A DNA stretch of 64,000 nucleotides, from the IMG/VR virus record IMGVR_UViG_3300037455_000462, positions 1 to 64,000 of that record, one strand, 5' to 3'. The notes beneath the pieces were generated by a model, which searched no databases, was not told the origin of the DNA, and worked only from the letters and a program-made list of their open reading frames with translations. Of the stretch, positions 2,174 through 47,063 are shown one piece after another. A program made the position numbers and the translations under genes. Every line of letters begins with the position of its first letter. Positions within the stretch are counted from its first letter, which is position 1. This DNA comes from a virus (taxonomy: Duplodnaviria > Caudoviricetes).

Positions 2174-2653
2174 ATGAAAATACTTAACACAGACGAATAC
2201 GTCAACGAAAAACTGAACATACAGCCAATATCAAAAGAACGGCTGAAAGAAATCAACGTTAAGGCTCTGCCGTCTTGGTCTGACACCGTTGTCGAGATAA
2301 ACGCAAAGAGATGGTCTGAAGATTCCGTTGAATGGCTGCGCAACAACAAAGAAGGATGCGCGTTCTTTGAACTCGGAAAATCCGACTGCAAAACGGGAAA
2401 GATGTCAATCGTTATGGGTTGGAGCGGCGGATTTGACGATGACGAGCCGCAGAACCCGAATGCTGACGGTGAATACCGAATATGCGTCAAACTCGCGTAC
2501 AACTGTGACGATATGCAGTGCGACTACGACTACGATTGGGAAATGCCATACGATGAAAACACGGGTGACGTTGACGACACAAACACCGCATACGAGGGGT
2601 TCGATGACGTTATGTGGCTGATAGAATATTGGAGAAAGAACTACAAGAAATAA
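2174..2653 (+). CDS. Hypothetical acidic protein with shared leader (putative internal head protein)
   Basis: Starts MKILNTDEYVNE-KLNIQPISKERL; late promoter upstream, terminator downstream; start re-assigned from 2066 to ATG 2174. Confidence 0.75.
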   Translation: MKILNTDEYVNEKLNIQPISKERLKEINVKALPSWSDTVVEINAKRWSEDSVEWLRNNKEGCAFFELGKSDCKTGKMSIVMGWSGGFDDDEPQNPNADGEYRICVKLAYNCDDMQCDYDYDWEMPYDENTGDVDDTNTAYEGFDDVMWLIEYWRKNYKK

Positions 2654-2729
2654 AAAAAGGCTCGCGGTTGCGAGCCTTTTTTATTTAGTGTTGTGATATA
2701 CAAAAACGCAGGCGATTTGCCTGCGTTTT
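2652..2729. terminator. Two back-to-back terminators between convergent genes
   Basis: AAAAAAAGGCTCGC-GGTT-GCGAGCCTTTTTT (2652-2682) and AAAAACGCAGGC-GATTT-GCCTGCGTTTT (2702-2729). Confidence 0.8.
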
Positions 2730-2770
2730 ATGTTAATTGATTTGAATAAGTTGTCGATTTGACTTACAGA

Positions 2771-3457
2771 TTATCTATTGCCGTATTCTTTTTCCAAATC
2801 TTCAATCATACGGTTTTGCAATTCCTCAACGCAAGCGACCATTTGTGGATAGAGAAGCCAATCCGTAAATTCAAAGTCTTCCTCTTTTACACAAACGTGC
2901 TTTCCACTCGCACCGAGAAATTCCAAATGTTTGTATGGAAACGTATAAGTGAAAATCTCGCTGTATTTGTTCACATAGTCATTATAAATCTCATTCGGTA
3001 TGCTGTTGTATTCCTCCGCATCTCTTGGCTCATCGCTTACCGCAAAACTCAATTCGTTCAAAATCTGTCTGTCTGACAATTCTATATTTCCGTTGTAGAA
3101 CTTGTAATCATAGTGACACCAGTCATCAAATGAGTTGTATTCCTCCCATTCGCCGCAATATATCTCTTTCACAGAGTCGCTATAAAGCGATGGATTGTTC
3201 AAACATTTTGACGCATCGTCATCCGTGTAGTTGTCGCCAACGAGGATTTTCATAGTGTCATTTGGTATATCCGCACTTATAATCCAAGCGGTTTCACCAT
3301 CATATTCACCACGAACAAATCCATATTCTTCTGGACTGTATTTGTAATATTTTTCCTGCATTTCCATAACAACATCTTTTATGTCGTTATAGTCGATTTC
3401 ATTTTTTTCGTTGATTTTGTGACTGTTAAACTCGTCAATTCTCATTATGTGTGTCAT
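2771..3457 (-). CDS. Hypothetical acidic protein with MTHIMRIDE leader
   Basis: 228 aa ORF; leader MTHIMRIDEFNSHKINE; late promoter at 3479. Confidence 0.7.
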   Translation of the reverse strand: MTHIMRIDEFNSHKINEKNEIDYNDIKDVVMEMQEKYYKYSPEEYGFVRGEYDGETAWIISADIPNDTMKILVGDNYTDDDASKCLNNPSLYSDSVKEIYCGEWEEYNSFDDWCHYDYKFYNGNIELSDRQILNELSFAVSDEPRDAEEYNSIPNEIYNDYVNKYSEIFTYTFPYKHLEFLGASGKHVCVKEEDFEFTDWLLYPQMVACVEELQNRMIEDLEKEYGNR

Positions 3458-3508
3458 AAATTCAAATTATATTTCTAATATTTATAACAGTGATTATTTG
3501 GCTTTTTT

Positions 3509-4676: not shown

Positions 4677-5528
4677 CTATCGCTGCAATTTGTTGTTTCT
4701 AATATTCGCCGCCGACATAAAAACATTGGAAAAATAGTTGTACATAGAATCGTACATCCCGTCTATGATTGTTTTTGACAGCATTATCCTATTGTCGGCA
4801 TCTTCTTTCGTAAGTGACGGATTCATAGCGACATTCACCAAACAGCACTCTTCATTGTCGTCAGTAACGAACTCTTTGAATTTACCAAAAACAGAACCCC
4901 CTATCGAGGAAACACCGTTCACGTCATCCTCCATAACAAATGGTGTCACAAAAGACATACCGTATGTGTTCAAGCATTTCAACTTGTTCAAATTAATGTC
5001 CAATTTCATTGAATCGCCTCTGAACCTTTCGAATCCATTATCCAATTTCAAAAACTCTTTGGCTATTTTGTCGTCCCTAACATATATTTTAAGGTCGCTG
5101 AAACGGCGGCATTTCTCGACAAAAACGTCATCGTGTTCCAATGCGTGTATTTGTGAGTTGTTCATACGCCTAATATCGGACGGGATAAACTCGAACACGC
5201 TGTTGTCGTATATTCTTGGAACAAACAGAATAAGGCGACCGCACATTTTGCTGTCCGCTTCATACACTCCTATACCAAGTTTGCTGTTAGTATACAGCAT
5301 AAAGAAATTCGCGTAATTGTCATTAGACTTGATATACTTTATGAGTTCGGAATTGATATATGCAGCCATATCAACCATCTCGCGTGTTGGGTTGTCTTTC
5401 ATACCCAACACACTGTTCGGCTTTTTATTGGCAAGAGGGTCGCTGTTGAACCTATCCTTGTTTCTGTCAGCCAATCTCGCACCAACGCTTTCCGTGATAA
5501 AATCGTCAAATTTTAATATATGTTTCAT
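4677..5528 (-). CDS. Hypothetical protein with capsid-targeting-like leader
   Basis: True start likely MKHILKFDDFITES (ATG 5528); the upstream extension overlaps the next gene. Confidence 0.65.
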   Translation of the reverse strand: MKHILKFDDFITESVGARLADRNKDRFNSDPLANKKPNSVLGMKDNPTREMVDMAAYINSELIKYIKSNDNYANFFMLYTNSKLGIGVYEADSKMCGRLILFVPRIYDNSVFEFIPSDIRRMNNSQIHALEHDDVFVEKCRRFSDLKIYVRDDKIAKEFLKLDNGFERFRGDSMKLDINLNKLKCLNTYGMSFVTPFVMEDDVNGVSSIGGSVFGKFKEFVTDDNEECCLVNVAMNPSLTKEDADNRIMLSKTIIDGMYDSMYNYFSNVFMSAANIRNNKLQR

Positions 5529-13690: not shown

Positions 13691-14140
13691 ATGAAGAATC
13701 TATCTGACTACATAGAAAAGAAAGAGCATAAACCGATAGACGTGTCGCTTGGAAAATGCTTCGGCGGCGGAGGATATTGCTGCACCAATATCAGCGCGGC
13801 TGACTTGTTCCTGCAAATAATGCCGAAACTGAAAGATGAATTCAAGTCGGAACTACTGCAACTGAAGGACAGACCCCAATTCTCAAACGAGTTGTCGCCC
13901 GCAGCCGTTAACTTCTACGGAAGCGATGACAAAATCATAGCGACATACAAGCGCGAGGTAATGCGCAAGATACCCACACGACTAACCCCGTTCTCATCCG
14001 TCACATACGTTCCGACAGTAATACACAATGTCGTAAGTTTCGCCGATAGTTGCGACAGACAGAAATTCATCGACAAATGCAAAGAACTGTCAAACGGGGT
14101 TATCGACTTTGACAAATACATAAAACAAGCACAATTATGA
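13691..14140 (+). CDS. Hypothetical protein, leader MKNLSDYIE
   Basis: 149 aa ORF in late operon. Confidence 0.6.
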   Translation: MKNLSDYIEKKEHKPIDVSLGKCFGGGGYCCTNISAADLFLQIMPKLKDEFKSELLQLKDRPQFSNELSPAAVNFYGSDDKIIATYKREVMRKIPTRLTPFSSVTYVPTVIHNVVSFADSCDRQKFIDKCKELSNGVIDFDKYIKQAQL

Positions 14141-14607
14141 AAATACTGAACACGGATGAATTTGTAAACGAGAAACTCGGCATCAAACCCATAAACAAAG
14201 ACCGATTGGAAGACATCGTTCATAACGAGTTGCCATACAACACATTCAAGGCGAAAATCAATTTGCTGATTGACGACTTGAAAAAGGAAGTGGAGCAAAG
14301 TGAAGATGAAGAGGAATCTATGTCATTGGAAGATTTCGACCTGCGCTTCCCATACAACAATGAGATATTCCAAATACCAAATTCCGAAAAGGACATTGAA
14401 GAAATATGGGACAAAATACTCGTAGGATTCGAAATGGATAAGTTTGAAAAAAACGAGGACGGCGACCCCGAAACATTTGTTGAGGCTTGGCTGAACTACG
14501 ACCTCGGTGTCGGCAATGTATCAGCAGACCCTATGGTTAATTATGCCGTCAATATCGTACAGAAAAAAGACGGACGACTCGAAGTATCATACGTGAATGA
14601 AAAATAG
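14137..14607 (+). CDS. Hypothetical acidic protein with shared leader
   Basis: MKILNTDEFVNE-KLGIKPINKDRL. Confidence 0.75.
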   Translation: MKILNTDEFVNEKLGIKPINKDRLEDIVHNELPYNTFKAKINLLIDDLKKEVEQSEDEEESMSLEDFDLRFPYNNEIFQIPNSEKDIEEIWDKILVGFEMDKFEKNEDGDPETFVEAWLNYDLGVGNVSADPMVNYAVNIVQKKDGRLEVSYVNEK

Positions 14608-14661: not shown

Positions 14662-15201
14662 TTATAGACAAGCATCTATATCCATCGCAACTTTTCCACC
14701 AAACACACTTGCTATTTTTGCAAACATACAGTCGGTAACAATATGTTGAAGTGAACCGAATGGGTTTGTGTTTCCGATATAATCATTACCTTTATCAATA
14801 ATATATTTGTAAAACGCTTTGTACTCTTCAAATTGGTCAGAATAGTGACTCAAATAATTTGCAATTTCATAACGCACCTCATAATGGTGATTTTGGCTTG
14901 TTAATTCAGCAAAATGATACAATATATTTTTTGGTATGACTATTCTCTTTTTCTTACAATGGTCATCTTTTACAAAAAAATCTATCATTTTTTTTGCAGA
15001 TTCGGCATAATCATTTGGTGATACCTTTTTTCCTTTGGTATGATTTCTCATAGTTTCATAAGAATCCGCCGCATCGGGATACGTGTTTTCAATATCCCAA
15101 CAAATACAATGGTATTTGTTTGAAAGTTCTTTAGCGAATTGTACATCAAACGAGTCTTGTTGGTTTTCCACCATTTCATCAATTTTCTTTATATGTGACA
15201 T
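14662..15201 (-). CDS. Hypothetical AT-rich gene with MSHIKKIDE leader
   Basis: Late promoter at 15220; leader family. Confidence 0.7.
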   Translation of the reverse strand: MSHIKKIDEMVENQQDSFDVQFAKELSNKYHCICWDIENTYPDAADSYETMRNHTKGKKVSPNDYAESAKKMIDFFVKDDHCKKKRIVIPKNILYHFAELTSQNHHYEVRYEIANYLSHYSDQFEEYKAFYKYIIDKGNDYIGNTNPFGSLQHIVTDCMFAKIASVFGGKVAMDIDACL

Positions 15202-18998: not shown

Positions 18999-19469
18999 TT
19001 AATTATTAAACAAGCCGCTTTTCGTGTAATACAATTTGAGCAAAAGGTCGTCCCCGCAGAACAAATCCTCCTGCACTCTGTCAGCATATTTCCTTATGAT
19101 GCCGAAATACACTTCCTTTTTGGAATAACGTTCCAACGCAACATACAGAGTGGCTAAAATCTTGACCTTTTTCATTTTCTTGCCAACACGTTGCTCGTGC
19201 TTTTTCAATTGTTCAGCAATAGGGAGTTTCTCCCAAGATACAAATCGTTTTTCCGTCTCGGCTATAGCCACATCCATATTGACCCAACATTCCTGCGAGA
19301 AACCTTGTGTTCTGACATTTATCACGAATGACAATCTTTCACACACTTTCCTGCCTTTCCAAAAATTGTCAATATGCAGCAAATTTGCTTCTTTTTTGAG
19401 ACGTTCCTTGCTCATCGGGGTAATGTCCAACTTCTCCGAAACAAATCTCCTATATTCCAATACTTGCAT
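18999..19469 (-). CDS. Leader-bearing hypothetical protein, paralog 1 of 3
   Basis: MQVLEYRRFVSE-KLDITPMSKERL; own late promoter. Confidence 0.75.
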   Translation of the reverse strand: MQVLEYRRFVSEKLDITPMSKERLKKEANLLHIDNFWKGRKVCERLSFVINVRTQGFSQECWVNMDVAIAETEKRFVSWEKLPIAEQLKKHEQRVGKKMKKVKILATLYVALERYSKKEVYFGIIRKYADRVQEDLFCGDDLLLKLYYTKSGLFNN

Positions 19470-19498: not shown

Positions 19499-19957
19499 TT
19501 AGAAAGGCAGTTCAAAATACAAGTCGATTATGTCGGACTTGTTCAAATTACATTCCTTCATAACACGCTCGATGTACTTGTCGATGACTGTTGAGAATTC
19601 GGGTCTGTTTCCGTACCTTTCGAGCGCGGCATAAAGAGTGGCTACGACCTTCGATTTTGTCATTTTCTTATCCGCCCTTTGCAAATGTTTTTTACGTTGC
19701 TCGGAAAACGGCAGTTTTTCCCAATCATCAAAACGCTCAAGCGTATGGGTGTACAGTTTGAAGAGATTTTTATCCAAGTCGATGCCTCTTGCATCAAAAT
19801 TATGCAGAAGCATATCAACGTTGGCGAGATTGTCTATCGGCAATTCCCCTTTGTTTATTTTCGGAATAATCTTGCCAATCTCACCAAGCCTATCCTTCGA
19901 AATAGGCTTTATGTTCAGTTTTTCGTTCACGAAATCTCTGTATTTCAATATTTTCAT
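19499..19957 (-). CDS. Leader-bearing hypothetical protein, paralog 2 of 3
   Basis: MKILKYRDFVNE-KLNIKPISKDRL (ATG 19957). Confidence 0.75.
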   Translation of the reverse strand: MKILKYRDFVNEKLNIKPISKDRLGEIGKIIPKINKGELPIDNLANVDMLLHNFDARGIDLDKNLFKLYTHTLERFDDWEKLPFSEQRKKHLQRADKKMTKSKVVATLYAALERYGNRPEFSTVIDKYIERVMKECNLNKSDIIDLYFELPF

Positions 19958-19971
19958 ACTATCGTAATATT

Positions 19972-20445
19972 CTATTGTTTTATAAAATAGATGTTGATTA
20001 TGTCTTTGTTGGATATGCCAAATTCCTTTTTGACACGATTGACGTAGCATTCGATTATGGGTGTGTATTCATCATCACCCAAATACAACTTGAAAGCAAG
20101 CCAAAGACACATAGCAACATCCAACTTCGGCATATCAATCTTGGAATATCTCTTGTGTTCCTCCAACTCGTTCTTGGTCGAGTAGTACTGCCAATTCAAA
20201 AACCTGCCCTTTATGAGAGAATACGCATTGTGCGCGATATGCTCGTTGCCGTGTATCAAAATGCCGCAAAACTGCTTATAACGAAGCCGAAGTGCGACAG
20301 AATGTTCGCATAGGGTGTTGCTGCTCAATCCACTGAACGCAAAAGGCTTCTTCAGCGAATCGGATTCCTTTTTGAGTCGCTCGTCCGACATAGGATGTAT
20401 GTCGAGTCTTTCGTTCACAAATTCGTCATAGTTGAGCAATCCCAT
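19972..20445 (-). CDS. Leader-bearing hypothetical protein, paralog 3 of 3
   Basis: MGLLNYDEFVNE-RLDIHPMSDERL (ATG 20445); late promoter at 20465. Confidence 0.75.
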   Translation of the reverse strand: MGLLNYDEFVNERLDIHPMSDERLKKESDSLKKPFAFSGLSSNTLCEHSVALRLRYKQFCGILIHGNEHIAHNAYSLIKGRFLNWQYYSTKNELEEHKRYSKIDMPKLDVAMCLWLAFKLYLGDDEYTPIIECYVNRVKKEFGISNKDIINIYFIKQ

Positions 20446-20518: not shown

Positions 20519-20962
20519 ATGGATTCATTAAACACACAAGCAATCACGCAGTTGTCAAAATCAAAAACCTATGTCGGAGCAAGTGTCGTTTTCCGATTCA
20601 CGCCGAACAGCCCGTATTCCAAATTCTCAAAACAGTACGGTGTGGATTTAAGAGTTCTGCTCGCCGAAAAAACCAAGCAAATCATACAGAAAGAATCGCA
20701 GAAAAACGTCACCACGCAATTGGACTACATTTGGTTCGATTCGGAGGCTGAACACTTGGACGCTTATCCTTCCCTTCTCGAAATAGGCGGGTATGCGATA
20801 ACTGACGGAATAACACCGAAAGAAGCATTGGCGTTAAGGTGGGCTTCGGGGGACATAGAAAAGGAATTGGAGAAACTGTTCCCGAATTGGGTCGCATTCA
20901 CAGCCAATATGTATTCCTTAACTGACGGCGAATTTTTGCAAATTGGAAATTGGAAGATATAA
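20519..20962 (+). CDS. Hypothetical protein
   Basis: 147 aa ORF behind middle-type motif. Confidence 0.55.
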   Translation: MDSLNTQAITQLSKSKTYVGASVVFRFTPNSPYSKFSKQYGVDLRVLLAEKTKQIIQKESQKNVTTQLDYIWFDSEAEHLDAYPSLLEIGGYAITDGITPKEALALRWASGDIEKELEKLFPNWVAFTANMYSLTDGEFLQIGNWKI

Positions 20963-21768
20963 TGCCGAAACTCATAATATCACCGATTACAAAAGAGCAT
21001 TTGGACAGAATGTCCAGCAGAACACCGATTGACGGCGAAGCGTTGGATTTCATAAGAGAATACAGCCTTGTTTTCAACCCGTCAACGTGTGCATACGATA
21101 CCGAAAAATATGTGTATATGACGGTTGACGAGCGTGTACTAAAACGCAACGGTGACGGATTCTCCATAAAGTTCGGGAAGATAGAAGGAACATTCGACTG
21201 TTCCGACAAAGGTCTTGTGTCGCTTAAAAACGCCCCGCTTGTAGTCACCGAAGGATTCCATTGCGAAAAGAACAAACTTAAAACGTTGGAGTTCTCGCCG
21301 AAAAAAGTGTACGGCACATTCACGTGTTACAACAACGGACTTGAATCCCTTTTAGGCGCACCGAAGAGAATCGGGAATCATTTTCATTGCGAATTCAACC
21401 ATCTGAAAACACTCGAACACGCCCCGAAGGTAGTATTGGGGGATTTCTCCTGCGTGCAGAACGAACTGATTTCACTCGAAGGCTCTCCGACCTATGTGAG
21501 CGGCGACTTCAGATGCGATTGGAACAAACTCAAATCGCTCAAATCGTCAACGGAAACCATCGGCGGCACTCTTTACTGCACAAGCAACGAATTGTCAAAT
21601 CTGCAACACACGCCGAACCACATAGGGCGAAACATTGTGTGCTACAAAAACCCTCTGACTTCGACAGAACTGCAAGGCACAACGCTCGGATACCTCGGAA
21701 GTGTCATCTCAAAAGAAAATGAATCGAAACCTCTGAATATTAAGTGGTCGGATTCGTTCATAATGTAA
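20962..21768 (+). CDS. LRR-like 22-residue repeat protein with partial leader
   Basis: About seven (F-x-C-x-x-N-x-L-x-S-L-x-G-x-P) repeats; starts MPKLIISPITKEHL. Confidence 0.75.
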   Translation: MPKLIISPITKEHLDRMSSRTPIDGEALDFIREYSLVFNPSTCAYDTEKYVYMTVDERVLKRNGDGFSIKFGKIEGTFDCSDKGLVSLKNAPLVVTEGFHCEKNKLKTLEFSPKKVYGTFTCYNNGLESLLGAPKRIGNHFHCEFNHLKTLEHAPKVVLGDFSCVQNELISLEGSPTYVSGDFRCDWNKLKSLKSSTETIGGTLYCTSNELSNLQHTPNHIGRNIVCYKNPLTSTELQGTTLGYLGSVISKENESKPLNIKWSDSFIM

Positions 21769-26003: not shown

Positions 26004-26118
26004 TGTCAAAGGTTTTTAAGTACGCAAATATTTATAAAGGCTCGATTTTATGGATTCAACAAAAACTCGGCAAAAACGAATGTTTTTTGTTGGGTCTATA
26101 AATAACAAAAACTAATAT

Positions 26119-30430: not shown

Positions 30431-30916
30431 CTAAAAAGCCAATTTGGAATCCTCGGTTATGAACTTGTATTCGATACCGTGCAAATCACAGTAGTTCCTG
30501 CAAGCCTTCGCCTTCTCCATATTCCTTATATAAGTTTCAGCCTCGCGCTTGTATCTCGCGACAGTCTTTTCGGTTTCGCGCCTCGGTTTCTTCGGAGCGG
30601 TCAAATCCTTCTTCGGCTTCACCTCCGCGATAATCTTGCGAACACCGTCCTTTGTCTTGTATTCAAAATAGAAGTCGGGAAAATACTCGTGATACTTCTC
30701 GTCAATGATGCTGAAATACCTAACTCTGATACACTCGCTCCCCCATTTGACAACGGTGGCGCACTCGTCAAGGAACTTGCACACCTTGTATTCCCAACTT
30801 GAACGGAATATTATCGGCAGATTGCCGCAATACTTCGCGGGAAACAATGGTGTGTAATAACCTTGCTGATAATGTGTGTTCTTGCCTCGTTTGGGCTGTA
30901 GCGATTTAATATCCAT
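30431..30916 (-). CDS. Head completion nuclease (T4 gp4-like, TnsA-type)
   Basis: KYCGN..IIFRSSWE, WGSE, YFPDF, EVKP, FITE. Confidence 0.85.
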   Translation of the reverse strand: MDIKSLQPKRGKNTHYQQGYYTPLFPAKYCGNLPIIFRSSWEYKVCKFLDECATVVKWGSECIRVRYFSIIDEKYHEYFPDFYFEYKTKDGVRKIIAEVKPKKDLTAPKKPRRETEKTVARYKREAETYIRNMEKAKACRNYCDLHGIEYKFITEDSKLAF

Positions 30917-30995: not shown

Positions 30996-31379
30996 TTATG
31001 ACTTCCAACCACGATAGCGATTCGAGGTTATGAAACTACCCGAAACGTCAATAATAATATTTTTCGAATCGGTTTGTATTTCTATAATACCTTTTCCACT
31101 TCTTTCAAATGTATATGTTCCACCGTTTGCCGATACGTTTTGATTGTTTAATTTCCACCAATATCCCAACAATTTTTTTGCATCAGAAATATCCAAGCCC
31201 ATAAGGTCGTTTTTCATTTCATTAAAATCAGCAACCAAGTCTGTTCTTTCGGGTTCTTCTTCCTCAACTTCTTTAGGTGTTTCTTTTTTTGTACCTATGG
31301 ACTGCAATCTTTCTTTTGACATAGGTTGTATGTTCAATTTTTCATTCACATACTCATCAATGCTCAAAATATTTGTCAT
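30996..31379 (-). CDS. Leader-bearing hypothetical protein
   Basis: MTNILSIDEYVNE-KLNIQPMSKERL; own late promoter and terminator. Confidence 0.75.
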   Translation of the reverse strand: MTNILSIDEYVNEKLNIQPMSKERLQSIGTKKETPKEVEEEEPERTDLVADFNEMKNDLMGLDISDAKKLLGYWWKLNNQNVSANGGTYTFERSGKGIIEIQTDSKNIIIDVSGSFITSNRYRGWKS

Positions 31380-31469: not shown

Positions 31470-32033
31470 TTAGGCGTTGACCTTTGAAAGGTAGTCGTCC
31501 ATAACGGCTTTAATTGCCTTTTCCTTGATTTCGTCATAAATGTTCGAGTATTGGTCGATGCCGAGTTTGTCATCAAATTCACTGATGAGTTCGTCTGTGA
31601 CTTGTTCCGTCCAACTTTCAGAGAACACCTCGTTCAGTTCCTCCGCGCTCACTTCATAGTCTTCCGTGAGTTCAACCAAATCCACGGTGTTGCGGACGTA
31701 CTTGACATCGATGTCGTAATCGTCAATCGTCATATCGCTGTAATGAAGCACAACGAGGGATTCGATTGTCGCGCTGTCGGAAAGTTCGCCTTCATCGTCA
31801 GAAAGTTCAAAATAGTATTTGAGTTCAATTTCAAGATGCGTGTTCTTGTTTTTGTCCAACGCCTTGAAGTCCTCAATCGAACCCTTGCCCTCTCTGTCGA
31901 AATAATACCAACTCTCGCCGTCCCAAGAGCATCTCACCGTAATCATATCCAAATCGAGTTTGTCTGTGATTGTCTTGGTTATGCCCATATAAGCCTCTTT
32001 GATATATTGTTCGCTGTTCAATACTTTTGTCAT
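31470..32033 (-). CDS. Acidic hypothetical protein with capsid-targeting-like leader
   Basis: MTKVLNSEQYIKE; late promoter at 32050; hairpin at 31412-31435. Confidence 0.7.
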   Translation of the reverse strand: MTKVLNSEQYIKEAYMGITKTITDKLDLDMITVRCSWDGESWYYFDREGKGSIEDFKALDKNKNTHLEIELKYYFELSDDEGELSDSATIESLVVLHYSDMTIDDYDIDVKYVRNTVDLVELTEDYEVSAEELNEVFSESWTEQVTDELISEFDDKLGIDQYSNIYDEIKEKAIKAVMDDYLSKVNA

Positions 32034-32060
32034 AGTCGCTTGTTTTCTATATTTATAACA

Positions 32061-32462
32061 CTAATTGTCGCAATATCCTTCGACATCCTCGCCAAGCCAA
32101 ACATACAATGTTTCTTGACGATATATTTTTACACTTGCATATCCGTCACTTCCGATTTTGGCGCGTTTTATGTCGTCTTCATAAACAACATCGGAATCTG
32201 GTTTCACCGAATATGTAGCAAAATTTTTTGCTCCCTTTGTCAACTTATCCCCAATACGAACCAACCAAAGCCAACTCTTCGTCCTTTTTTCGATTTTATA
32301 AAAATATACAATACCTCTATATGTACAATACACAATATCCCCAACGTGATAGAGTTTTCTTGCAACATTGGTTTTGTCAAGCCGTTCCTTGCTGATAGGT
32401 TGTATATCGAGTTTCTCGGACAACGCCGTGACAAACTCATCAAACTTCATTATATTATTCAT
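32061..32462 (-). CDS. Leader-bearing hypothetical protein (SH3-like)
   Basis: MNNIMKFDEFVTALSE-KLDIQPISKERL; YHVGDIVY. Confidence 0.75.
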   Translation of the reverse strand: MNNIMKFDEFVTALSEKLDIQPISKERLDKTNVARKLYHVGDIVYCTYRGIVYFYKIEKRTKSWLWLVRIGDKLTKGAKNFATYSVKPDSDVVYEDDIKRAKIGSDGYASVKIYRQETLYVWLGEDVEGYCDN

Positions 32463-32471: not shown

Positions 32472-33002
32472 TTATTCTACTTTATCAAATATTTCATTGA
32501 GTCGTTTTTCAATATAAGAAAAATCACCCCTAAAATTAGCACGGAATGGAAAGAGTCCAAATGTTGTTGACATCGGTATCAAATAACGGATACTGTCTTC
32601 CACCCTGCAAGCAAACACATCACAGTTACCATACCCATACACCTTTGCTCTGTTATAAAAATCATCCCAATCATAAAATATTGACTTTGAAAAATCCATA
32701 ACCCAATCATCCGTGACTATTTGACCGTTAATTTTGGGAAACCTACCATTACTTTTCGGTTGTGACGCAAGTGGATAAAACCAAGCACCTTTTTTTATTT
32801 GTGTGACAAGTTTCGGCAATTTACTCATTTTTATAGGACGAATGTTTAATTTTTCTTCAATACCTCCTTCACTTCCATAATAGAAAAACGGTTTATATGT
32901 GTCATTAAAGTCAATTTCATACGGATGATTGGCATTCATATAACTTCTAACCCCAAATTGCTTAACTTTAGCCATTTCATCAATTCTCATTATATGTATC
33001 AT
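32472..33002 (-). CDS. Hypothetical protein with MIHIMRIDE leader and internal EKLNIRPI motif
   Basis: Late promoter at 33022. Confidence 0.7.
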   Translation of the reverse strand: MIHIMRIDEMAKVKQFGVRSYMNANHPYEIDFNDTYKPFFYYGSEGGIEEKLNIRPIKMSKLPKLVTQIKKGAWFYPLASQPKSNGRFPKINGQIVTDDWVMDFSKSIFYDWDDFYNRAKVYGYGNCDVFACRVEDSIRYLIPMSTTFGLFPFRANFRGDFSYIEKRLNEIFDKVE

Positions 33003-33024: not shown

Positions 33025-34035
33025 TTATACAGACCGACCCACTCTCTCGAACTTCACAATCAAATCCAATATGTCAACATTCTTTATGTATTCGAATGTG
33101 AACGGCTGTATCTGCCGTTTCTCGTGTCTGTATATAGCCTGCACGGTAAGCGAATTTTGGTTTGACGATTTCGGCATCATCATACGGTCGTCCTCAAACT
33201 CGCCAAGCATAACACTATCTAAAAATTCACTATTAGCGTGTAGTTTGCGGCAAGTCAAAAGAACACCCTCGCTTTTGCCCTTTTGCTGTTTGGCTGCAAG
33301 GTATATCGAATGCGGAAGCGTGCTTGCATAGTCATATTTCTCAATATCGTCAATCGTCACATACACGTATATGGTCATCCTTGTGTCAAGCGAACCCGTT
33401 GTAATCACAACATCACCGCTTCTCAACTTTTTCTTCCAACCTTCCTTCTCTTCTATTCTAACCCACGGGTGTATGTCGCCGAGGCGTTCCTTGGATATGG
33501 GCTGTATGTTCAGTTTCTCATTGGTCGCCGATTTGCGTTCCCACACAACATAGGCGTTCTTTGTCGAAAATTCCTTCGCAAACACATTGACATAAAACTT
33601 GTTCCTTATCCAATATCCTTTGAGTGTCGGATAACGGTAAACTCTCATAATACTGCCGACTTTACCGTGAAGCCAATTCAAGTATTCATCATAATCCATA
33701 AGTCTCGTGGTGTTGTTTATGTCATACCCAAAGCCTGGTGTAATCATCACAAAACACCCCTTGTGCAAAAAATCCTTTGAAACGAGATACTCGGAGTCGG
33801 ATTTCGGAAAAAAGCCGTAATCGTCATAAGAAACATAAACCAAATAATTGAGTTCTTTGACATCGTTGTTCCCCGTGCCGAATGACACAACATCCCCCGT
33901 CTTGAAATTCTCACGCATCTCGCTCGCGGACTTGTATCTGACAAGGACACTACCAAGGCGTTCCTTGGTTATCGGCTGTATATTGAGTTTTTCCGTAACT
34001 TCGGAAAAACCGTCAACGCTTAACACTTTTGTCAT
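33025..34035 (-). CDS. Two-repeat protein, each repeat starting with EKLNIQPIxKERL
   Basis: Paralogous halves (GDVV..YVxxDD..G..YR..ER). Confidence 0.75.
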   Translation of the reverse strand: MTKVLSVDGFSEVTEKLNIQPITKERLGSVLVRYKSASEMRENFKTGDVVSFGTGNNDVKELNYLVYVSYDDYGFFPKSDSEYLVSKDFLHKGCFVMITPGFGYDINNTTRLMDYDEYLNWLHGKVGSIMRVYRYPTLKGYWIRNKFYVNVFAKEFSTKNAYVVWERKSATNEKLNIQPISKERLGDIHPWVRIEEKEGWKKKLRSGDVVITTGSLDTRMTIYVYVTIDDIEKYDYASTLPHSIYLAAKQQKGKSEGVLLTCRKLHANSEFLDSVMLGEFEDDRMMMPKSSNQNSLTVQAIYRHEKRQIQPFTFEYIKNVDILDLIVKFERVGRSV

Positions 34036-36695: not shown

Positions 36696-37259
36696 TTATA
36701 TGTTGTTCGGTTTTCTCGGATGTTTATCACGCTTGTTCAGCAAAGGCGAATATCCGAACATACCCCTTGTGTTGGTCGCATTCAGCAATTCCCATTTCGA
36801 CAAATCACCGTCAAAGCGGGAATATTCAAACATACGGGTTGCCCGCCGCACATTGCGCACATCCCAATCGGAAATGTCCCCGTTGAAATCGCTTCCAGCA
36901 AACATAACACACATATCTTCCACCTTACCCACATTCCATTTTGAAATATCCCCGTTGAATTTTGAATTTCGGAACATAGCGAACATATTTGTGACATTAG
37001 ATACATCCCACATCGAAATATCGCCGTTAAACTTGGAGTTGAAAAACACGCCGTTCATATCGGTTATCGCCGAAACGTCAATCACATTAAGATTGCACTC
37101 ATACCCCTGCTCGTCAATCAAACGGTCTATCGTGTAAATCAACTCTTCCCTTGTTTTGGAAAAATACAGACGGGTGAACATTTTATCCAACCGTTCTTTT
37201 GAAATGGGCGATATGTCAAGCCGCTCCCTTATATATCTTTCTGTTCCGAGAATCTCCAT
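36696..37259 (-). CDS. BspA/DUF285 repeat protein with shared leader
   Basis: FNGDISxWDVSNVTNMxxMF repeats; MEILGTERYIRE-RLDISPISKERL. Confidence 0.85.
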   Translation of the reverse strand: MEILGTERYIRERLDISPISKERLDKMFTRLYFSKTREELIYTIDRLIDEQGYECNLNVIDVSAITDMNGVFFNSKFNGDISMWDVSNVTNMFAMFRNSKFNGDISKWNVGKVEDMCVMFAGSDFNGDISDWDVRNVRRATRMFEYSRFDGDLSKWELLNATNTRGMFGYSPLLNKRDKHPRKPNNI

Positions 37260-37813
37260 TACTGTTGTGCATTATATTTCTGCTCGATATCCGCAATGTA
37301 ATCTTCGAGATATTTGAGGTGTTCCTCCTCGTCAGCGAGAATATGCACAGCCATATCGTAAGTTGTCGTATCCTTTCCCCTCGTGAAGTCAAGTAGTTTC
37401 TGATAGCCGTCAATGGCACATTTCTCGTGGGCTATGTTCATAACAACAAGAGACCTTGTGTCGTATGGCTTCTGCGGAATTTGATAAGCGCATTCGCTCA
37501 ACGAAGCCAAGTTGCGGATGTCTTTGAGTTTTTCGGCATCGCCGCCGAGTTCCGAAATGCGCTTGATAATCTTCGCCGCGTGGTCGTTGAGTTCGTCATC
37601 AGCCATTTCAGCAAATGTTTTTTCGATACTCGGTCTTTCATCGCCAACCAAGAACGGAACAATGACGTTATAGTGATACCATTGCAGGATTTCCTCGGCA
37701 TAACGCTTTTCGAGCATCTCCACCAAAGCAACTCTGTCAATGCGTTCCTCAACGCTCTCATTCACCTTGTTTTTGAAATAATCCTTGTTTGTGTATTGAC
37801 TCAAATTTTTCAT
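37259..37813 (-). CDS. Ferritin-like (DPS-like/bacterioferritin) protein
   Basis: AEE..WY.Y, DELNDHA..RISELGG, EKCAIDGY, ILADEEEH; ATG 37813 behind late promoter. Confidence 0.8.
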   Translation of the reverse strand: MKNLSQYTNKDYFKNKVNESVEERIDRVALVEMLEKRYAEEILQWYHYNVIVPFLVGDERPSIEKTFAEMADDELNDHAAKIIKRISELGGDAEKLKDIRNLASLSECAYQIPQKPYDTRSLVVMNIAHEKCAIDGYQKLLDFTRGKDTTTYDMAVHILADEEEHLKYLEDYIADIEQKYNAQQ

Positions 37814-41426: not shown

Positions 41427-44285
41427 TTAAATCATTGACTTCGGTATAGAATCATACAATCCCTTCAAGTCAATGTCGGGGTGATTCTTTTGATAGTTCC
41501 TCCAAATAGCGATGTACTGTTCACTTTTTTCGTCACCCTTGGTATAGTTAACGCCCGTGAGGTCGCAGTATTTGAACACCCTCGCAATGAAGTCGCTTGA
41601 TGTGTTGCCACCTTTGTTGTCGTAGTTGATTTCCAAGAACTTGATTAAGTTTTCCAATTCGTGTGGAGATATCGGATTTTTCACGTTGTAGTGGCGCATA
41701 ATGTAACGTTTCAGATAATTCGTCATAACAACGGATTTCGTATCTTCAACCCTCATAGTCGGATTGGCAACGATGTCCTCGTATTTGTACTTGAACACGC
41801 CGTTACCTTGGTTGTCCATATAGTCTTCGACATATTCTTCAGCCGTTTTGTCTGGGAGGAATTTCTTTACAATTCTCTTGAACTCCTTTTCTCCGAGTTC
41901 GGTGTAAGACTTCAGTCCGCGAAGTCTGCAAACACGGTTGAGTTCTTCAATGCAGAAAGACCAAGAACGAGGGCTAATCTGACGGGTCTTGTTGCCCGTT
42001 GTTGATTCAGTAGGGTCAATGTTATGCCACCTTGAATTCTTGGTGTCAGCACCCATAGCACCTATATGGTCGATTGTGAAATCGTCAAATCCGCCTTTCT
42101 CTTTCGCCCATTTAGCCCATTCCTTGAAGTCGGGAACAAAGTTCACTGAAACGAAACGCTGTTTCAGAGCATCGCTCAACAACTGCCAATTCTGATTCAC
42201 TTGGATATCGTCAGTAGGTCTGTTGGAGCAAGCCATACAATACCATTTGCTGCCGAGTCTGTAACCCGAAGTGGTCTGACGGTTCATCATAATCTGTGCG
42301 ATACCGAACAATGTGTCGGGGTCTGCACGCAGGAACTCGTCAAACATCAAGATACCGCCGCCGCCGTGGACTTCGCTGTCCATTTCGATTCCGTCCTTGT
42401 CGTAAACAATGTCAACAGAACCGTTTGCTTCCGCATTACGAGCCTTGTCTATTTCACGGTCGCCCGTTGGTTGCCACATAGGAAGCCAACTCTTCGGGGC
42501 ATCGGAAGAATGCGCCGAAATATATTTCTTGAAATCCTTGTCAGTCATATTCCTGCCCTTGACCATTTCTTGGATTACGGGGTTTTGTTTGACCCTCTCG
42601 ATGTCAATGTCATTTATCTTGACGGGCATAGGCATAAACAAGTCACCCGCCTGCAAGGTGGAACAGTCCACAACAATGATTGACATCATATTTCCCGTAG
42701 AACCGCCGCTTTCAGCGATTTTCTTGTTTGCCGCTTTTATAAGGATTGATGGGATTGTGGTCTTTCCGATACCTGGCGCACCCCAAACCAACATAGGCTT
42801 ACCCGTTGGACGACCGTCCATAAGGATTTCGTTGATGTTGTCGTTCAAGTCATTCTCCAACTCGGAAGTGGTGACATCAACGGCATCTATGTTGAGGTAG
42901 GTTTGACCGCCTTCTTTCTCGATGGCTTTCAGTCCGACACGGCGTTCATTGACCTCAACGGATTCGCTGATACCCGCAGCCTTTGAAACGTAGTCCAAGA
43001 ATTTGAGGTAGTTGTCATATTCGAGACTGCCCTTTTCGATTTTGTCATAGTAACCGCTCTTTGAAGGATAGTTGACGGGCTTTCCGATTTCGGCATAAAC
43101 GCCGCGAATCTTGTGCTTGTGGATGAAGTTAACAATGTTCTGCGGCAAGTTAGCACCGAACATATCGAATGTCTTGCCGACAACGAATGTGAATCCGTCC
43201 ATAAGTTTTATACCGACACTCTTGAAAGCACCTTTGATTTTGTCAAACGCTTTCTTGGCGTAGTCGCCGATAACACCCTCGTTCATCACATAGTTCTCTT
43301 GGATGAACTTGGCTGTATCCATAACGTAGGTTTTTTGTTCGTCTGTGTCCATAATTCCAGTATTTCTGTAACTTTTCAATGTTTTAACCTTTCGCTTAAC
43401 GTCTTGGGCATTGCCGACCATAGCACTCATCTGCTTCCTTGATATTTCGGCATCGTCAACGCTCATCTGACCGATAACGGGCATATATCCGAGGAACGGG
43501 TTGATTGTGGCTTCCCAATGGTCGATGACCTCTTGCTTATCGAAGTCTGAAGCAACAAACATATTCTTAACGGATTCAGCACTTGAAAGTTCCCACTCAC
43601 GTATTGAATCGTTATTGAATGTTGATTTGTAGAACATACCGTCAAAGACAGTTCCGTTTGAAACATTCCAACCGCTCAAGTCAACGTTTGGTAAATCCTT
43701 GAATGCGAATACAGCGCAGAAGTTCTTAACGTCTGTCACATTGAAAATGGAGTAGGGGAGTTCGACATCCTGCGTTGTCATACCTTCCAACTCGCCTTTC
43801 AGAAGCATATCGTAAACAAGGTCTGCCGCATAGTTTATATCCCTCTTATCACCTTGGATATACGCTTTGTCACCACGGTTTTTAAGGGTTATCTCTTGGT
43901 GCGAAAGCCAATCGGCTTGTTCATCAGAAAGAGATTTGGACTTGCTTGCGTTTTCCTTCTGATTTTGTCTGACCTCGAAGTCGTGCATAGACTTGACACC
44001 CTTCATATCGTCATCATCGTCATCGGGAATATCGTTTTCGAGAGAGTTGTTTCCGATGTTTTCGTCATCAACGTCATCGAAGAATCCCTCATTGACAACC
44101 ATACGGCTGTTTCTGTTTTTAAGGAGTTCGTCAACGGATTCAGAAATCATTTGCGAATTCTCCGCGAAAAACTGCTCATAAAGTTTTCTTTTTTCCGAAA
44201 TAGGCAGGCTCTTGTCAACCTTGTTCCAAAAGTTTTCCCTTGCGTATTTTGAAACAATGCCTATATTGTAATCAAATGCGTTCAT
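41427..44285 (-). CDS. MoxR-like AAA+ ATPase with N-terminal DUF285-like repeats
   Basis: WGAPGIGKT, ILMFDEFLRA, ACSNR, ALKQRF, SPRSW; GWNVSNGTVFDGMF repeats. Confidence 0.8.
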   Translation of the reverse strand: MNAFDYNIGIVSKYARENFWNKVDKSLPISEKRKLYEQFFAENSQMISESVDELLKNRNSRMVVNEGFFDDVDDENIGNNSLENDIPDDDDDDMKGVKSMHDFEVRQNQKENASKSKSLSDEQADWLSHQEITLKNRGDKAYIQGDKRDINYAADLVYDMLLKGELEGMTTQDVELPYSIFNVTDVKNFCAVFAFKDLPNVDLSGWNVSNGTVFDGMFYKSTFNNDSIREWELSSAESVKNMFVASDFDKQEVIDHWEATINPFLGYMPVIGQMSVDDAEISRKQMSAMVGNAQDVKRKVKTLKSYRNTGIMDTDEQKTYVMDTAKFIQENYVMNEGVIGDYAKKAFDKIKGAFKSVGIKLMDGFTFVVGKTFDMFGANLPQNIVNFIHKHKIRGVYAEIGKPVNYPSKSGYYDKIEKGSLEYDNYLKFLDYVSKAAGISESVEVNERRVGLKAIEKEGGQTYLNIDAVDVTTSELENDLNDNINEILMDGRPTGKPMLVWGAPGIGKTTIPSILIKAANKKIAESGGSTGNMMSIIVVDCSTLQAGDLFMPMPVKINDIDIERVKQNPVIQEMVKGRNMTDKDFKKYISAHSSDAPKSWLPMWQPTGDREIDKARNAEANGSVDIVYDKDGIEMDSEVHGGGGILMFDEFLRADPDTLFGIAQIMMNRQTTSGYRLGSKWYCMACSNRPTDDIQVNQNWQLLSDALKQRFVSVNFVPDFKEWAKWAKEKGGFDDFTIDHIGAMGADTKNSRWHNIDPTESTTGNKTRQISPRSWSFCIEELNRVCRLRGLKSYTELGEKEFKRIVKKFLPDKTAEEYVEDYMDNQGNGVFKYKYEDIVANPTMRVEDTKSVVMTNYLKRYIMRHYNVKNPISPHELENLIKFLEINYDNKGGNTSSDFIARVFKYCDLTGVNYTKGDEKSEQYIAIWRNYQKNHPDIDLKGLYDSIPKSMI

Positions 44286-44307
44286 ATATGATGAATAATG
44301 TTTTTTC

Positions 44308-46284
44308 TTATTGTTCTGGGATATTGATTTGTGAAATAAGGTCTTCCTTCCAATCCAAACCGTTCAAGAAACTCTCTTTGAGAGAACCGTTCACGAAAGC
44401 ACGCCAAGTCAGATACTGACCGCGACCCTCGATAAATTCGTTCTCAACGGTTTCGATTACCTCATCAACATATTGTGGCGGAACAGCCCAACTTTCATCG
44501 TTGGTTTCTTTCACTTGTTGGAGTTTAGCCTTGACTTTCGTCCAAATGACAAGAACGGGCGGTGCTATGCGGTAGAACTTGCAGCGTCCTCTGATTGCGC
44601 CCCAACTGTCACCCAACTGACTTGAAAGTTTCTGCTCTGAAAGGTTGGTGATAATGATGAACCTGCTCATAATGTTCATTTCATCGGGTATCATACGCTC
44701 AATGCTCTTGACCTTTTCCTCTTCATCGGTCTGCTGCTGCGCCTTGCCTTTCTTGTTGAGTTTTTTCAACGTTTCTTGCGAAGGACATTCCTTCAGATAC
44801 CTTTTCTTGTAATTCACAATGCCGCCTTCCTTGCAACTCTCTATGCTGTAGAAATTGCCTCTGATAACATCGCCCATATCGGAAGCGGTCGGGCATTTCA
44901 CAGTAGGAAAGTCGCCTTTCGGCTCAAGAGCCTTTTTCCAAAAACCGATTTGGAAATCGCTGTCAAACAACTTCGGGGTATCGTCAAAAACAAGAACCTT
45001 TCCGTTGTTGTTGTATATGAAATTGTAAAGTTCCTTTGCGTTGCAGGTGGTGTTGTCACGCTCGGCATAGTCCCTTCCTTTTTCAAGTCTCATTTCTTTC
45101 TTGATTTCGTTCCAAGTTTCGGACTTACCGATACCGCCGACACCGCTGATGAAGATGGCGGGCGCACCGACATCCAATCTGTCCAATTTCTGAACCCTCG
45201 TGAGTTTGCAGAACTCAACAAGGAACTGTGTTCTTTTCTTCAAATCTTCCATCTGCGTGAAGTACAAATCAACCAATTTCTTGAACTCGCTGAAATTGTT
45301 TTTGTACATAATATTCACGAGACTGATGTCAATACCACGGTATTCAGTACCGTATTCGCTCGTAACACCCTCGGCTACATTGACACTCTCGTTTGTGAGA
45401 ACGTTTGCCTTGATGCCGAACATATCGTCCGTACATATAATATACACCACGGCGCAATAAACCTCGATGGAACTGCGTTTGTTGACGGGAATACCGCCAG
45501 AGAGGATGCGGCGCAGTTTGATGCCCTCGGCATCGCCAACACAAAGGCTTTCCGCAATGTCGTATGGTCTGAAATCAATGTTTTTCATATGTTCAGCCAA
45601 GTCGTTGATACCCTCGACTGTAATCTTGTCACCAAGCCAACTCGGTTTCTTCGCCTCGTTCTTGACCCACTTCAACACGGCTACGGTCTTTGGGTTCTTT
45701 GCAATGGAATTCCAAGCGACCCTAATGTCGTCATTGGTGAGAGCCTCGTTAATCATTTCCTCGGTGAACTCGACTTGCATACCCTCGTACAGACCATTCT
45801 GATAAGCATCTGGGTTCTTGATTATGTCAAACAGCAGGTCAAGCATACGGACAATACCCATATTCTTCGCGCTGATTGTGTAGTCGGCAACCTGCGAATC
45901 CTCTTTCAGATTGTAACTCTTGTAATAACGGATAACCGAACTGCTGCCGTTCCCAACGGGGGTCAACGTGACGGCGTTGCCGTTTCCGAGACCGCTCATT
46001 ATGAGAATTGTGTTCGTTCCGTCAATCAACTTGAAGAACGTATGGAAATACGCTTTCCAACCGCAGTTCTTGTTCAAGAGCGCGATTACGCTTTCCGCCA
46101 TTTTCTTCATTTTCGGATTGTCCGCCACGACCAAATTAGGCTCTGTGGCAAACGGTGTCGCATTAAGTTTGTCCGCAATGGCAACAGTGTCGATTTCACT
46201 GCCGTTGGATTCAAGCAGAAGATTAGGGTCTTCTTTCACAGCACTTTTGCTTATGCGACTTATTGAATCAGATAAATTTTTCAT
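44308..46284 (-). CDS. AAA+-type P-loop ATPase
   Basis: ISGVGGIGKS, VLVFDD, IIITN, AIRGR; late promoter at 46314. Confidence 0.75.
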   Translation of the reverse strand: MKNLSDSISRISKSAVKEDPNLLLESNGSEIDTVAIADKLNATPFATEPNLVVADNPKMKKMAESVIALLNKNCGWKAYFHTFFKLIDGTNTILIMSGLGNGNAVTLTPVGNGSSSVIRYYKSYNLKEDSQVADYTISAKNMGIVRMLDLLFDIIKNPDAYQNGLYEGMQVEFTEEMINEALTNDDIRVAWNSIAKNPKTVAVLKWVKNEAKKPSWLGDKITVEGINDLAEHMKNIDFRPYDIAESLCVGDAEGIKLRRILSGGIPVNKRSSIEVYCAVVYIICTDDMFGIKANVLTNESVNVAEGVTSEYGTEYRGIDISLVNIMYKNNFSEFKKLVDLYFTQMEDLKKRTQFLVEFCKLTRVQKLDRLDVGAPAIFISGVGGIGKSETWNEIKKEMRLEKGRDYAERDNTTCNAKELYNFIYNNNGKVLVFDDTPKLFDSDFQIGFWKKALEPKGDFPTVKCPTASDMGDVIRGNFYSIESCKEGGIVNYKKRYLKECPSQETLKKLNKKGKAQQQTDEEEKVKSIERMIPDEMNIMSRFIIITNLSEQKLSSQLGDSWGAIRGRCKFYRIAPPVLVIWTKVKAKLQQVKETNDESWAVPPQYVDEVIETVENEFIEGRGQYLTWRAFVNGSLKESFLNGLDWKEDLISQINIPEQ

Positions 46285-46316
46285 ATTTAGAATTGTATTA
46301 TATATGGCAAATATAT

Positions 46317-47063
46317 TTATATGTTACGGGGATTCTGTTTCTGAAATTCATTTATGTCAACTTTAACCCAATCAAGATGTTCGCGTTTGTCCATCAAAAT
46401 GTACCAATGACCGCCGTAGTCACTTTCCTCCCAACACAACTTCGCGTAATAGATGGTTTTTCCGTGTATATCCATCAGAGGGTATCTGAACATTCTGTCG
46501 GATGAAACGTCTGTTGTCAATTCGCATTTGTCGTAATATTTCGCGGGGACATAATCCGCCCTCGCATAAACACGGAATCTTCTGTACTTCATCAAAGAAC
46601 GCAATCCGTCCGCAATATCGTCATAATCGTACAAATGAAATATCTCGTATTGTTCCTCCGTATTCATAAACGCAGGCATAATGCAGCAGAACGCATCAGA
46701 ACGCTTATGCCCAACGACATACCCGTTCTTTTCGAGTATGCGTATAGCATTGTCTATGTCGTTGGAGTTGACGGGAAACTTCCAAACCTCGTGTTCTATG
46801 TCGCAGTCTTTGTCGATAAACACGCCGCCGACCCGTGACTTGAACACGGAGTATTCCGTGTTTTTGTCATCAATGTCATACCACATAAGACTTGAAACGA
46901 GTGCCACGGCGACCGCTTTCATCCTCTCCACGTTGTTATTCGGCATTTCGTTGAATTTGTTGAATTCGTCCTTTTTGATTTTCAGATTCGACAATGACGC
47001 TCCGAGGTTTCCGAGCCTCTCCTTGCTTATGGGCTTTATGCCGAGTTTTTTTACGCCTTCCAT
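46317..47063 (-). CDS. Hypothetical protein with partial leader KLGIKPISKERL
   Basis: 248 aa ORF. Confidence 0.7.
   Translation of the reverse strand: MEGVKKLGIKPISKERLGNLGASLSNLKIKKDEFNKFNEMPNNNVERMKAVAVALVSSLMWYDIDDKNTEYSVFKSRVGGVFIDKDCDIEHEVWKFPVNSNDIDNAIRILEKNGYVVGHKRSDAFCCIMPAFMNTEEQYEIFHLYDYDDIADGLRSLMKYRRFRVYARADYVPAKYYDKCELTTDVSSDRMFRYPLMDIHGKTIYYAKLCWEESDYGGHWYILMDKREHLDWVKVDINEFQKQNPRNI

Follow-up and report, generated by a model that had tools for sequence, protein, structure and literature searches.

A recurring two-part N-terminal tag on diverse proteins of a jumbo phage lineage: a candidate capsid-targeting leader followed by a second conserved segment

Tagged genes and anatomy of the tag

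The window analyzed here covers the first 64 kb of an IMG/VR record of 105,907 bp (IMGVR_UViG_3300037455_000462; contig G000), which has a CheckV completeness of 33% and is therefore a fragment. Twelve genes of this window carry all or part of a 24- to 27-residue tag, typically N-terminal, with the motif [ILVF]-x-E/K-L-x-I-x-P-[VIM]-[TS]-K-x-R-L, where the slash, here and below, marks a predicted cut site that divides the tag into part 1 and part 2. A six-frame scan found 13 copies of the tag in these 12 genes, every one of them where the initial annotation, made from the sequence alone, had reported it. The strict pattern gives 14 six-frame matches in the window, 13 of them genuine and one due to chance (in a 50-aa noncoding frame at 11731), against a mean of 0.01 matches in 100 shuffled versions of the window. 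The tagged genes are listed below in window positions, which are also those of the contig; TATAAATA is the T4 late-promoter consensus, and G002 is a 413-kb relative of the contig that is 100% complete. ORF and LRR stand for open reading frame and leucine-rich repeat.

2174-2653 (+): 159 aa, acidic body without a known family; complete tag at 2174-2245; TATAAATA at 2149; directly 3' of the tail sheath gene
14137-14607 (+): 156 aa, acidic body; tagged; final gene of a same-strand unit starting at TATAAATA 11093
18999-19469 (-): 156 aa, first paralog of a trio, basic helical body; tagged; TATAAATA at 19493
19499-19957 (-): 152 aa, second paralog of the trio; tagged
19972-20445 (-): 157 aa, third paralog of the trio; tagged; TATAAATA at 20472
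20962-21768 (+): member of an LRR-like family; part 2 only, with the start MP-KLIISPITKEHL; no late promoter nearby
30996-31379 (-): 127 aa; tagged; TATAAATA at 31406
32061-32462 (-): 133 aa, tagged stand-alone unit; its counterpart in G002 is unit 3 of a fused ORF (80% identity)
32472-33002 (-): leader MIHIMRIDE/M; degenerate tag inside the protein (residue 51), GIEE/KLNIRPIKMSKL; TATAAATA at 33029
33025-34035 (-): 336 aa, two-unit gene; tagged N-terminally and again, with ATNE/KLNIQPISKERL, inside the protein (residue 174)
36696-37259 (-): 187 aa, DUF285 (BspA-like repeat); tagged
46317-47063 (-): 248 aa, part 2 only, near the N terminus (MEGVK-KLGIKPISKERL); downstream of TATAAATA at 47635

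The remainder of the contig adds six copies, at 70745, 85235, and 100930 and, within one 454-aa ORF, at 71156, 71660, and 72116. The initial annotation had proposed extending the search with a hidden Markov model (HMM), and such a scan brings the whole 105.9-kb contig to 19 copies in 16 ORFs, or 14% of the crude gene calls, and finds the tag also in related contigs (see below).

Built from 93 distinct copies at the N terminus, the consensus reads M-[KER]-I-L-x-[ST]-x-x-[YF]-[IV]-[NS]-E-K-L-x-I-[KQ]-P-[VI]-[TS]-K-x-R-L-x-x-hydrophobic. It consists of part 1, M-[KER]-I-L-x-[ST]-x-x-[YF]-[IV]-[NS]-E, and an about equally conserved part 2, K-L-x-I-x-P-[VI]-[TS]-K-x-R-L-x-x-hydrophobic. Some nine of the 27 positions are conserved as hydrophobic, about five of them in part 2, which also has 3 or 4 basic residues and almost invariant Ser/Thr, Lys, and Pro. 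At the junction, position P1, just ahead of the Lys, holds Glu in 170 of the 177 copies from three contigs, and P3 is Ile, Val, Leu, or Phe in 162 of these. The distance from Met to Lys is 12 residues in 93 of the 145 N-terminal copies. The tag also occurs in 34 internal copies, spaced by 150 to 165 residues in ORFs of 2 to 4 units, and 32 of these retain [IVL]-x-E and part 2 without the I-L...Y helix of part 1. Conversely, where part 1 is absent, as in the genes starting at 20962 and 47063 and in a few genes of the relatives, part 2 stands 2 to 6 residues from the start codon. In the product of 20962-21768, residue 3 aligns to residue 13 of approximately 40 fully tagged homologues from related contigs. 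This placement agrees with the initial suggestion that part 2 begins at the predicted cut and would become the N terminus of the mature protein.

The Leu, Ile, Pro, Ser, and Arg codons of the tag differ freely among copies in a DNA alignment of all of them, so selection acts on the peptide and not on the DNA; a DNA- or RNA-level element is excluded by the same free variation at synonymous positions. Modeling suggests that part 2 would form a short strand (K-L-x-I-x) followed by the Pro and a Ser/Thr-capped helix, which makes it a plausible docking peptide. The consensus logo lacks a hydrophobic stretch of the signal-peptide kind, a double glycine, and any other known leader motif; the tag profile gave only chance-level matches to PDB sequences, and the tag peptide was absent from the literature searched.

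The late-promoter motif TATAAATA is 4-fold enriched (35 sites versus 8 expected). Of the 16 tagged genes in the contig, 7 have an exact copy 14 to 21 nt ahead of their ATG, and the others, except 20962, are downstream of a same-strand site, which bears out the initial assignment of all tagged genes but that one to TATAAATA-driven units. The same motif precedes the protease (of G002; see below), sheath, and large structural genes. Judged by the promoter motif, the tagged genes would be expressed late, together with the head genes.

Distribution, unit architecture, and protein bodies

The tail sheath protein is akin to those of uncultured "huge phages" of 460 to 735 kb and, more distantly, to those of jumbo phages of Tenacibaculum, Flavobacterium, and Sphingomonas; the host is probably a member of the Bacteroidota. 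Related contigs were located with a degenerate DNA pattern, which picked out three other IMG/VR contigs, and then with the tag profile, which matched 22 times in a 144-kb contig, 75 times in the complete 413-kb G002, and 90 times in a 192-kb contig that is incomplete (G003). In the HMM scan, G002 has 75 copies in 64 ORFs (12% of crude gene calls) and the 192-kb contig has 88 copies in 75 ORFs (32%). A scaffold from ENA has 14 tagged genes among 15 adjacent ones, and in two contigs the capsid gene is immediately followed by the start of a tagged-gene array. In an exhaustive profile search, just 205 tag carriers turned up among 1.84 billion cluster representatives, nearly all with the tag at residue 1, and the carriers common to this and the first protein search come from metagenomic sources only. 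No tblastn match to a full tagged protein was found in 50,697 phage records, cultured phages included, and no near-identical DNA was found in the phage collection. The tag profile likewise had no match in LR756500.1 or in Tenacibaculum phage PTm1, but a prefilter had passed no candidates from these two genomes, which makes this negative weak.

The contig runs colinear with the final 100 kb of G002. While core genes of the two are 75 to 93% identical and the genes adjoining the tagged ones are conserved, the tagged genes themselves are either 32 to 63% identical or nonsyntenic. This fast turnover resembles that of the variable internal-protein loci of T-even phages (PMC3012670). The contig ends (105800-105907) inside an ORF of collagen-like Gly-x-x repeats (GIQGVQGKQG...), and its homolog in G002 runs across the end of that sequence into its start, so either the ends of G002 are arbitrary or G002 is circularly permuted.

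The units also change their connections. The stand-alone unit 32061-32462 aligns with unit 3 of the three-unit ORF of G002 (80% identity), and the alignment begins exactly at SE/KL; judging from such alignments, units move between fused and separate states. A junction peptide that lies in a linker and units that exist also as separate genes are traits that would be expected of a protease-processed polyprotein. Elsewhere in G002, a 564-aa coiled-coil-rich late protein (278270-279964) ends in ...EDFINEKYNR-stop, and the next gene (279968-280369), 3 bases after that stop, starts with M-LNIQPLTKQDL, so that the two together resemble a single tag interrupted by a stop codon. A fused precursor may have been split recently, or else there is a problem of assembly or frameshift.

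The bodies behind the tag are diverse. Single-linkage BLAST clustering of 183 units (median length, 152 residues) gave approximately 40 clusters, including two large repeat families of 67 and 43 units. Pfam searches with 145 tagged proteins found DUF285 in 27, LRR_4 in 14, Fib_succ_major in 10, and DUF4893 in 6, and left the majority without a family; by Pfam, at least five distinct types of body follow the tag, with both helical and beta-rich folds. DUF285 members share a second element, P-x-T-x-x-E-L, right after the tag. In the window, the 12 tagged genes fall into about nine sequence families, and Pfam and PHROGs searches with most of the bodies found nothing except DUF285 and an LRR-like PHROG. 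The initial annotation had described the bodies as unrelated apart from one trio. The trio members are indeed paralogs; however, the DUF285, LRR-like, and 33025-34035 proteins of the window also belong to families, and across the clade the two repeat families dominate. The remaining window bodies have few or no relatives. The median pI of the units is 5.6, like that of the remaining proteome, and a charge bias of the kind seen in the basic T4 internal proteins was rejected on this ground.

In the AlphaFold2 model of the DUF285 protein 36696-37259, the body has predicted local distance difference test (pLDDT) values of 94 to 99, compared with 54 to 62 for residues 1 to 30. In that of 33025-34035, the N-terminal tag (pLDDT, 49 to 63) and the internal tag (58 to 63) both lie outside two folded units. 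Since the tag segments are of low confidence beside well-folded bodies, the models suggest a portable appendage or linker that is not part of the folds. Foldseek searches of PDB with the DUF285 and two-unit models found nothing at E values of ≤0.001; the DUF285 model retrieved only weak rows of the LRR type (internalins and Bacteroides cell-surface proteins). The two-unit model retrieved nothing convincing. A weak NlpC/P60-like sequence match (E = 0.08) was seen, and an ESM Atlas search with the trio body found no usable match.

Predicted cleavage and competing explanations

In T4, the internal proteins IPI to IPIII and Alt carry at the N terminus a capsid-targeting sequence of 10 to 20 residues (CTS; MKTYQEFIAE), which takes them into the scaffolding core and which gp21 removes by a cut after hydrophobic-x-Glu (PMC8442874, PMC5694885, and PMC3012670). 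Head genes of the same type are present in G002. Its Peptidase_S77 protease (290916-292859, minus strand) matches the T4 gp21 structure 5JBL (E = 1.1e-5), in an alignment that keeps the stretches LGELDHP and SSRAAG. We take these to be the stretches with the catalytic His and Ser. The protein is a 647-aa fusion of a protease domain of approximately 200 aa, about 12 tandem copies of a 14-aa (42-bp) repeat with the pattern H-[NS]-D-Y-L-A-E-[KQ]-L-x-x-N-F, and a charged C-terminal region. The repeats contain ten Y-[LI]-x-E-[KQ]-L sites, which is what would be expected of a scaffold that is chopped at maturation; the fusion may thus be a protease with a built-in scaffold, and there is a faint hint that part 1 may mimic the repeats. 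G002 also encodes a gp23-like capsid protein (62022-63818) with I/L-x-E sites in its N-terminal extension.

Several genes carry leaders that resemble part 1 and end in a comparable site, without part 2, or belong to a third leader type:

2771-3457 (-): 228 aa, third leader type, MTHIMRIDE/F; TATAAATA at 3486
4677-5528 (-): 283 aa, leader MKHILKFDDFITE/S; no part 2
31470-32033 (-): 187 aa, part-1-type leader MTKVLNSEQYIKE/A; no part 2; TATAAATA at 32057
49820-50371 (-): 183 aa, T4-CTS-like leader MVKKYIEFITE/S; no part 2; TATAAATA at 50397

The third type, M-x-H-I-[MK]-[RK]-I-D-E-[MF], again ends in I-x-E and is found in 2771-3457, 14662-15201, and 32472-33002 (all on the minus strand), which are all late genes; in G002 (302551-303084), this leader is fused directly to part 2 (MTHIKRIDEMEECNE-RLNIQPVTKERL). 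Outside the window, at 96959-97489 (+), the contig encodes a 176-aa ADP-ribosyltransferase (PF03496, ADPrib_exo_Tox; E = 1.3e-9) that starts with MKKYDEFVAE/K; by its parallel to T4 Alt, it is a candidate for an Alt-like injected enzyme. Relatives have part-1-only leaders on a PGA_cap/peptidase protein and others. A 12-residue part-1 profile placed about 18 untagged N termini above the best of 545 internal control segments, and it gives the T4 CTS 7.6 bits, versus a control maximum of 6.3. In the part-1-only leaders, the Glu is followed by Ser, Ala, Gly, or Asn, so part 2 is unlikely to be needed for cutting.

On balance, these features lean toward part 1 being a capsid-targeting propeptide that is cut by the prohead protease, with the tagged proteins packaged in the head. 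The data show the motif, where and how widely it occurs, its genomic setting, and its flexibility in the models; cleavage, packaging, and delivery, as well as any role of part 2, are what we infer from them. The tag would then be a bipartite leader on late accessory proteins of a T4-related jumbo phage clade. Part 1 would bring each protein into the prohead scaffolding core, as the T4 CTS does, and a gp21-type prohead protease would remove it after [IVLF]-x-E; multi-unit precursors would be divided at that site too, giving modules of some 150 residues. In their mature form, these modules (mainly DUF285, LRR repeats, the lectin-like Fib_succ_major, and bodies of unknown fold) would be kept inside the head as internal ("ejection") proteins and pass into the cell together with the DNA. 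Part 2, probably dispensable for targeting and cutting, would stay as the common N terminus of every mature module, where it would most likely dock the modules to one shared putative partner, perhaps the core or DNA in the head or a target in the host. The initial proposal that part 1 is a cleaved T4-type signal is thus favored circumstantially, by the Glu/P3 signature, the 12-aa leader, the gp21 and gp23 homologs of G002, the late promoters, the part-1-only leaders, and the internal copies in linkers.

Several observations weigh against this proposal. The 64 to 75 tagged ORFs per genome (12 to 32% of crude gene calls) far exceed any known set of internal head proteins, although the head of SPN3US packs more than 40 MDa of ejection proteins (PMC7411985). 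The modules are not basic, unlike the T4 internal proteins. A Lys at P1' and a conserved P' side of 12 to 15 residues are not traits of known gp21 sites, and the Glu is missing from two internal copies. A comparison of part 1 with the protease-linked repeats yields at most 4.3 bits per repeat and makes the protease only the third-ranked untagged ORF. No Peptidase_S77 protease and no gp23-type capsid gene were found in the 105.9-kb contig; the contig being a fragment, the protease and capsid evidence is taken from its relative G002. Finally, DUF285, LRR, and Fib_succ_major are typically cell-surface binding modules, which suggests that an external role would suit them better and keeps alive the explanation by external display that is considered next.

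According to that explanation, the whole 27-residue tag is an uncleaved docking peptide that ties the binding modules to an external hub, such as head or tail fibers or a baseplate adaptor, and the virion would display a large repertoire of adhesins. Such an arrangement, which we regard as rather unlikely, would account for the LRR, DUF285, and lectin-like bodies, mostly surface binding modules in bacteria, for late expression of tagged genes interspersed with tail genes, and for the number of conserved hydrophobic positions, which is as one would expect of a binding peptide. Head fibers or hairs are reported for two cultured distant relatives, Tenacibaculum phage PTm1 and Sphingomonas phage PAU, which also counts in its favor. 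However, it does not account for three observations: internal copies that have otherwise lost part 1 still show the nearly invariant Glu and hydrophobic P3, enzymes such as the ADP-ribosyltransferase bear leaders with part 1 alone, and units fuse and separate at the tag. Moreover, modules of 130 to 190 residues are small for fiber proteins.

Less probable still is an intracellular address without packaging, directing the modules to some machine of the host or phage, for example a protease adaptor, a compartment, or the membrane, where they would act as substrate adaptors in the manner of the poxvirus ankyrin/PRANC proteins, which have a single docking domain in common. Large, fast-evolving families of binding repeats that share one constant short module would fit this scheme, as would a tag that is flexible and independent of the body. 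Yet the late promoters are those common to structural genes, which is unusual for host takeover, the T4-type cut-site signature and the likeness to the CTS go unexplained, and no candidate partner was found.

It is quite improbable that the tag is a leader for a modifying or exporting enzyme, similar to those of ribosomally synthesized and posttranslationally modified peptides or of secreted proteins, with part 2 as the modification or recognition site. The near invariance of Ser/Thr, Lys, and Pro in part 2 would suit such a site, but the hallmarks of export leaders are lacking, in that there is neither a signal-peptide-like hydrophobic stretch nor a double glycine; matches to the radical-SAM family PF04055 occur in G002 only, and not beside the arrays, with none in G003 or G000 (both incomplete), and no other linked enzyme was noticed. 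The least probable alternative takes the motif for a structural cap at the N terminus of paralogs from a single diverged family, as the dominance of the two repeat families and the additional P-x-T-x-x-E-L element of the DUF285 members might suggest: at least five Pfam-distinct bodies in about 40 BLAST clusters, with helical and beta-rich folds, AlphaFold2 models that do not pack the tag onto the body, and tags in the linkers between units all speak against it. The initial annotation had named this very case, a single homologous family with the motif as a structural element, as one that would undo its proposal, and the clusters and the low pLDDT of the tag outside the folds point the other way.

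If part 1 is indeed removed in the prohead, part 2 could be a second, independent address label that acts only after maturation: the cut would lay bare Lys-Leu-x-Ile-x-Pro-Val-Thr-Lys as the N terminus of some 70 small binding modules per phage, and this strand-plus-helix peptide would dock them all to one partner. We put this forward as a tentative idea, possible but doubtful. As partners, one may think of the packaged DNA or core, which would allow ordered co-ejection, of a hub protein that accepts strands, or of a host machine, for example a degradation pathway that depends on an N-terminal Lys; in such a scheme, the phage would inject a library of adaptors aimed at a single hub.

Other genes of the contig and relation to known systems

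Several further genes lie near the tagged ones. Directly upstream of the tagged DUF285 gene, 37262-37813 (-), preceded by TATAAATA, encodes a ferritin-like/rubrerythrin-like protein (PF00210; E = 5e-17). A gene with a TnsA-like endonuclease N-terminal domain (30431-30916, minus strand; PF08722, E = 3e-17), located between a conserved 613-aa gene and a tagged cluster, may represent a mobile or homing element. The untagged 952-aa product of 41427-44285 (-) combines an N-terminal DUF285 segment (residues 179 to 257) with a C-terminal ATPase (phrog_1297), and its gene shares a late operon with the part-2-only gene 46317-47063. Two genes, each with TATAAATA ahead, are 22635-26009 (-), which encodes a 1,124-aa protein with several glycosyltransferase domains (GT2 and GT92-like), and 26119-26931 (+), whose 270-aa product is a divergent-strand paralog of the N-terminal part of the former. 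By PHROG matches, the 525-aa ORF 50393-51970 (-) is a fusion of dihydrofolate reductase (residues 4 to 174) and thymidylate synthase (residues 167 to 522), which in T4 are encoded separately.

If the proposed packaging takes place, this clade gives 12 to 30% of its genes to capsid-loaded proteins that can be predicted from sequence and are delivered with the DNA, and the idea of T4 internal proteins would come to cover dozens of diversifying binding modules instead of about four proteins. These would make a ready list of candidate injected factors for host interaction or antidefense in phages without a cultured host. Part 2 would be the first sequence-defined "postcleavage" label on phage head cargo, offering a handle on the old question of how internal proteins are organized in the head and how they exit from it, and the bipartite tag could serve to package foreign proteins, as the T4 CTS already does.

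The closest known counterpart of the tag is the T4 CTS. Both are leaders, of 10 to 13 residues, that end in hydrophobic-x-Glu and head unrelated, fast-evolving proteins expressed from late promoters, in lineages with a gp21-type protease and a gp23-type capsid protein, and in both an ADP-ribosyltransferase (Alt in T4) has the leader. In contrast to T4, however, a second, equally conserved segment of 12 to 15 residues follows the cut site here and would stay on the mature protein, the carriers number 64 to 75 per genome rather than about four, their bodies are binding-repeat modules (median pI, 5.6) instead of small, basic, DNA-associated proteins, and the motif also joins units inside multiunit ORFs. 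The IP1 loci of T-even phages, read as encoding injected antidefense proteins (Repoila et al. 1994, as cited in PMC3012670), are similar in that diverse, rapidly exchanged genes have the leader alone in common; arrays of 14 to 16 adjacent tagged genes, a bipartite leader, and unit fusions set the present loci apart.

In the phiKZ-like giant phages (phiKZ, 201phi2-1, and SPN3US), propeptides and ejection proteins are processed at [S/A/G]-x-E (PMC5694885 and PMC7411985). The likeness extends to a giant head loaded with many proteins, a gp21-related protease that cuts after Glu (here as a prediction), paralog families that share their N termini, and precursors with multiple cleavage sites. However, their propeptides are mostly longer than 100 residues and have no single portable consensus, the P3 residue is small there and Ile, Val, Leu, or Phe here, and no conserved N-terminal motif left after cleavage is described for these phages. 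With viral polyproteins that the virion protease cuts at a fixed junction, the tagged ORFs have in common the repeated units and the constant junction peptide in a flexible linker, whereas the units here are paralogous or unrelated accessory modules, and every one of them is found as a gene of its own, complete with leader, as well.

Thus, a shared capsid-targeting leader on unrelated proteins is already known, being established for the T-even phages, whose internal proteins form a diverse set with the leader alone in common (PMC3012670). What is new here is the second segment, part 2, the scale on which the tag is used, and the architecture of units that undergo fusion and fission.

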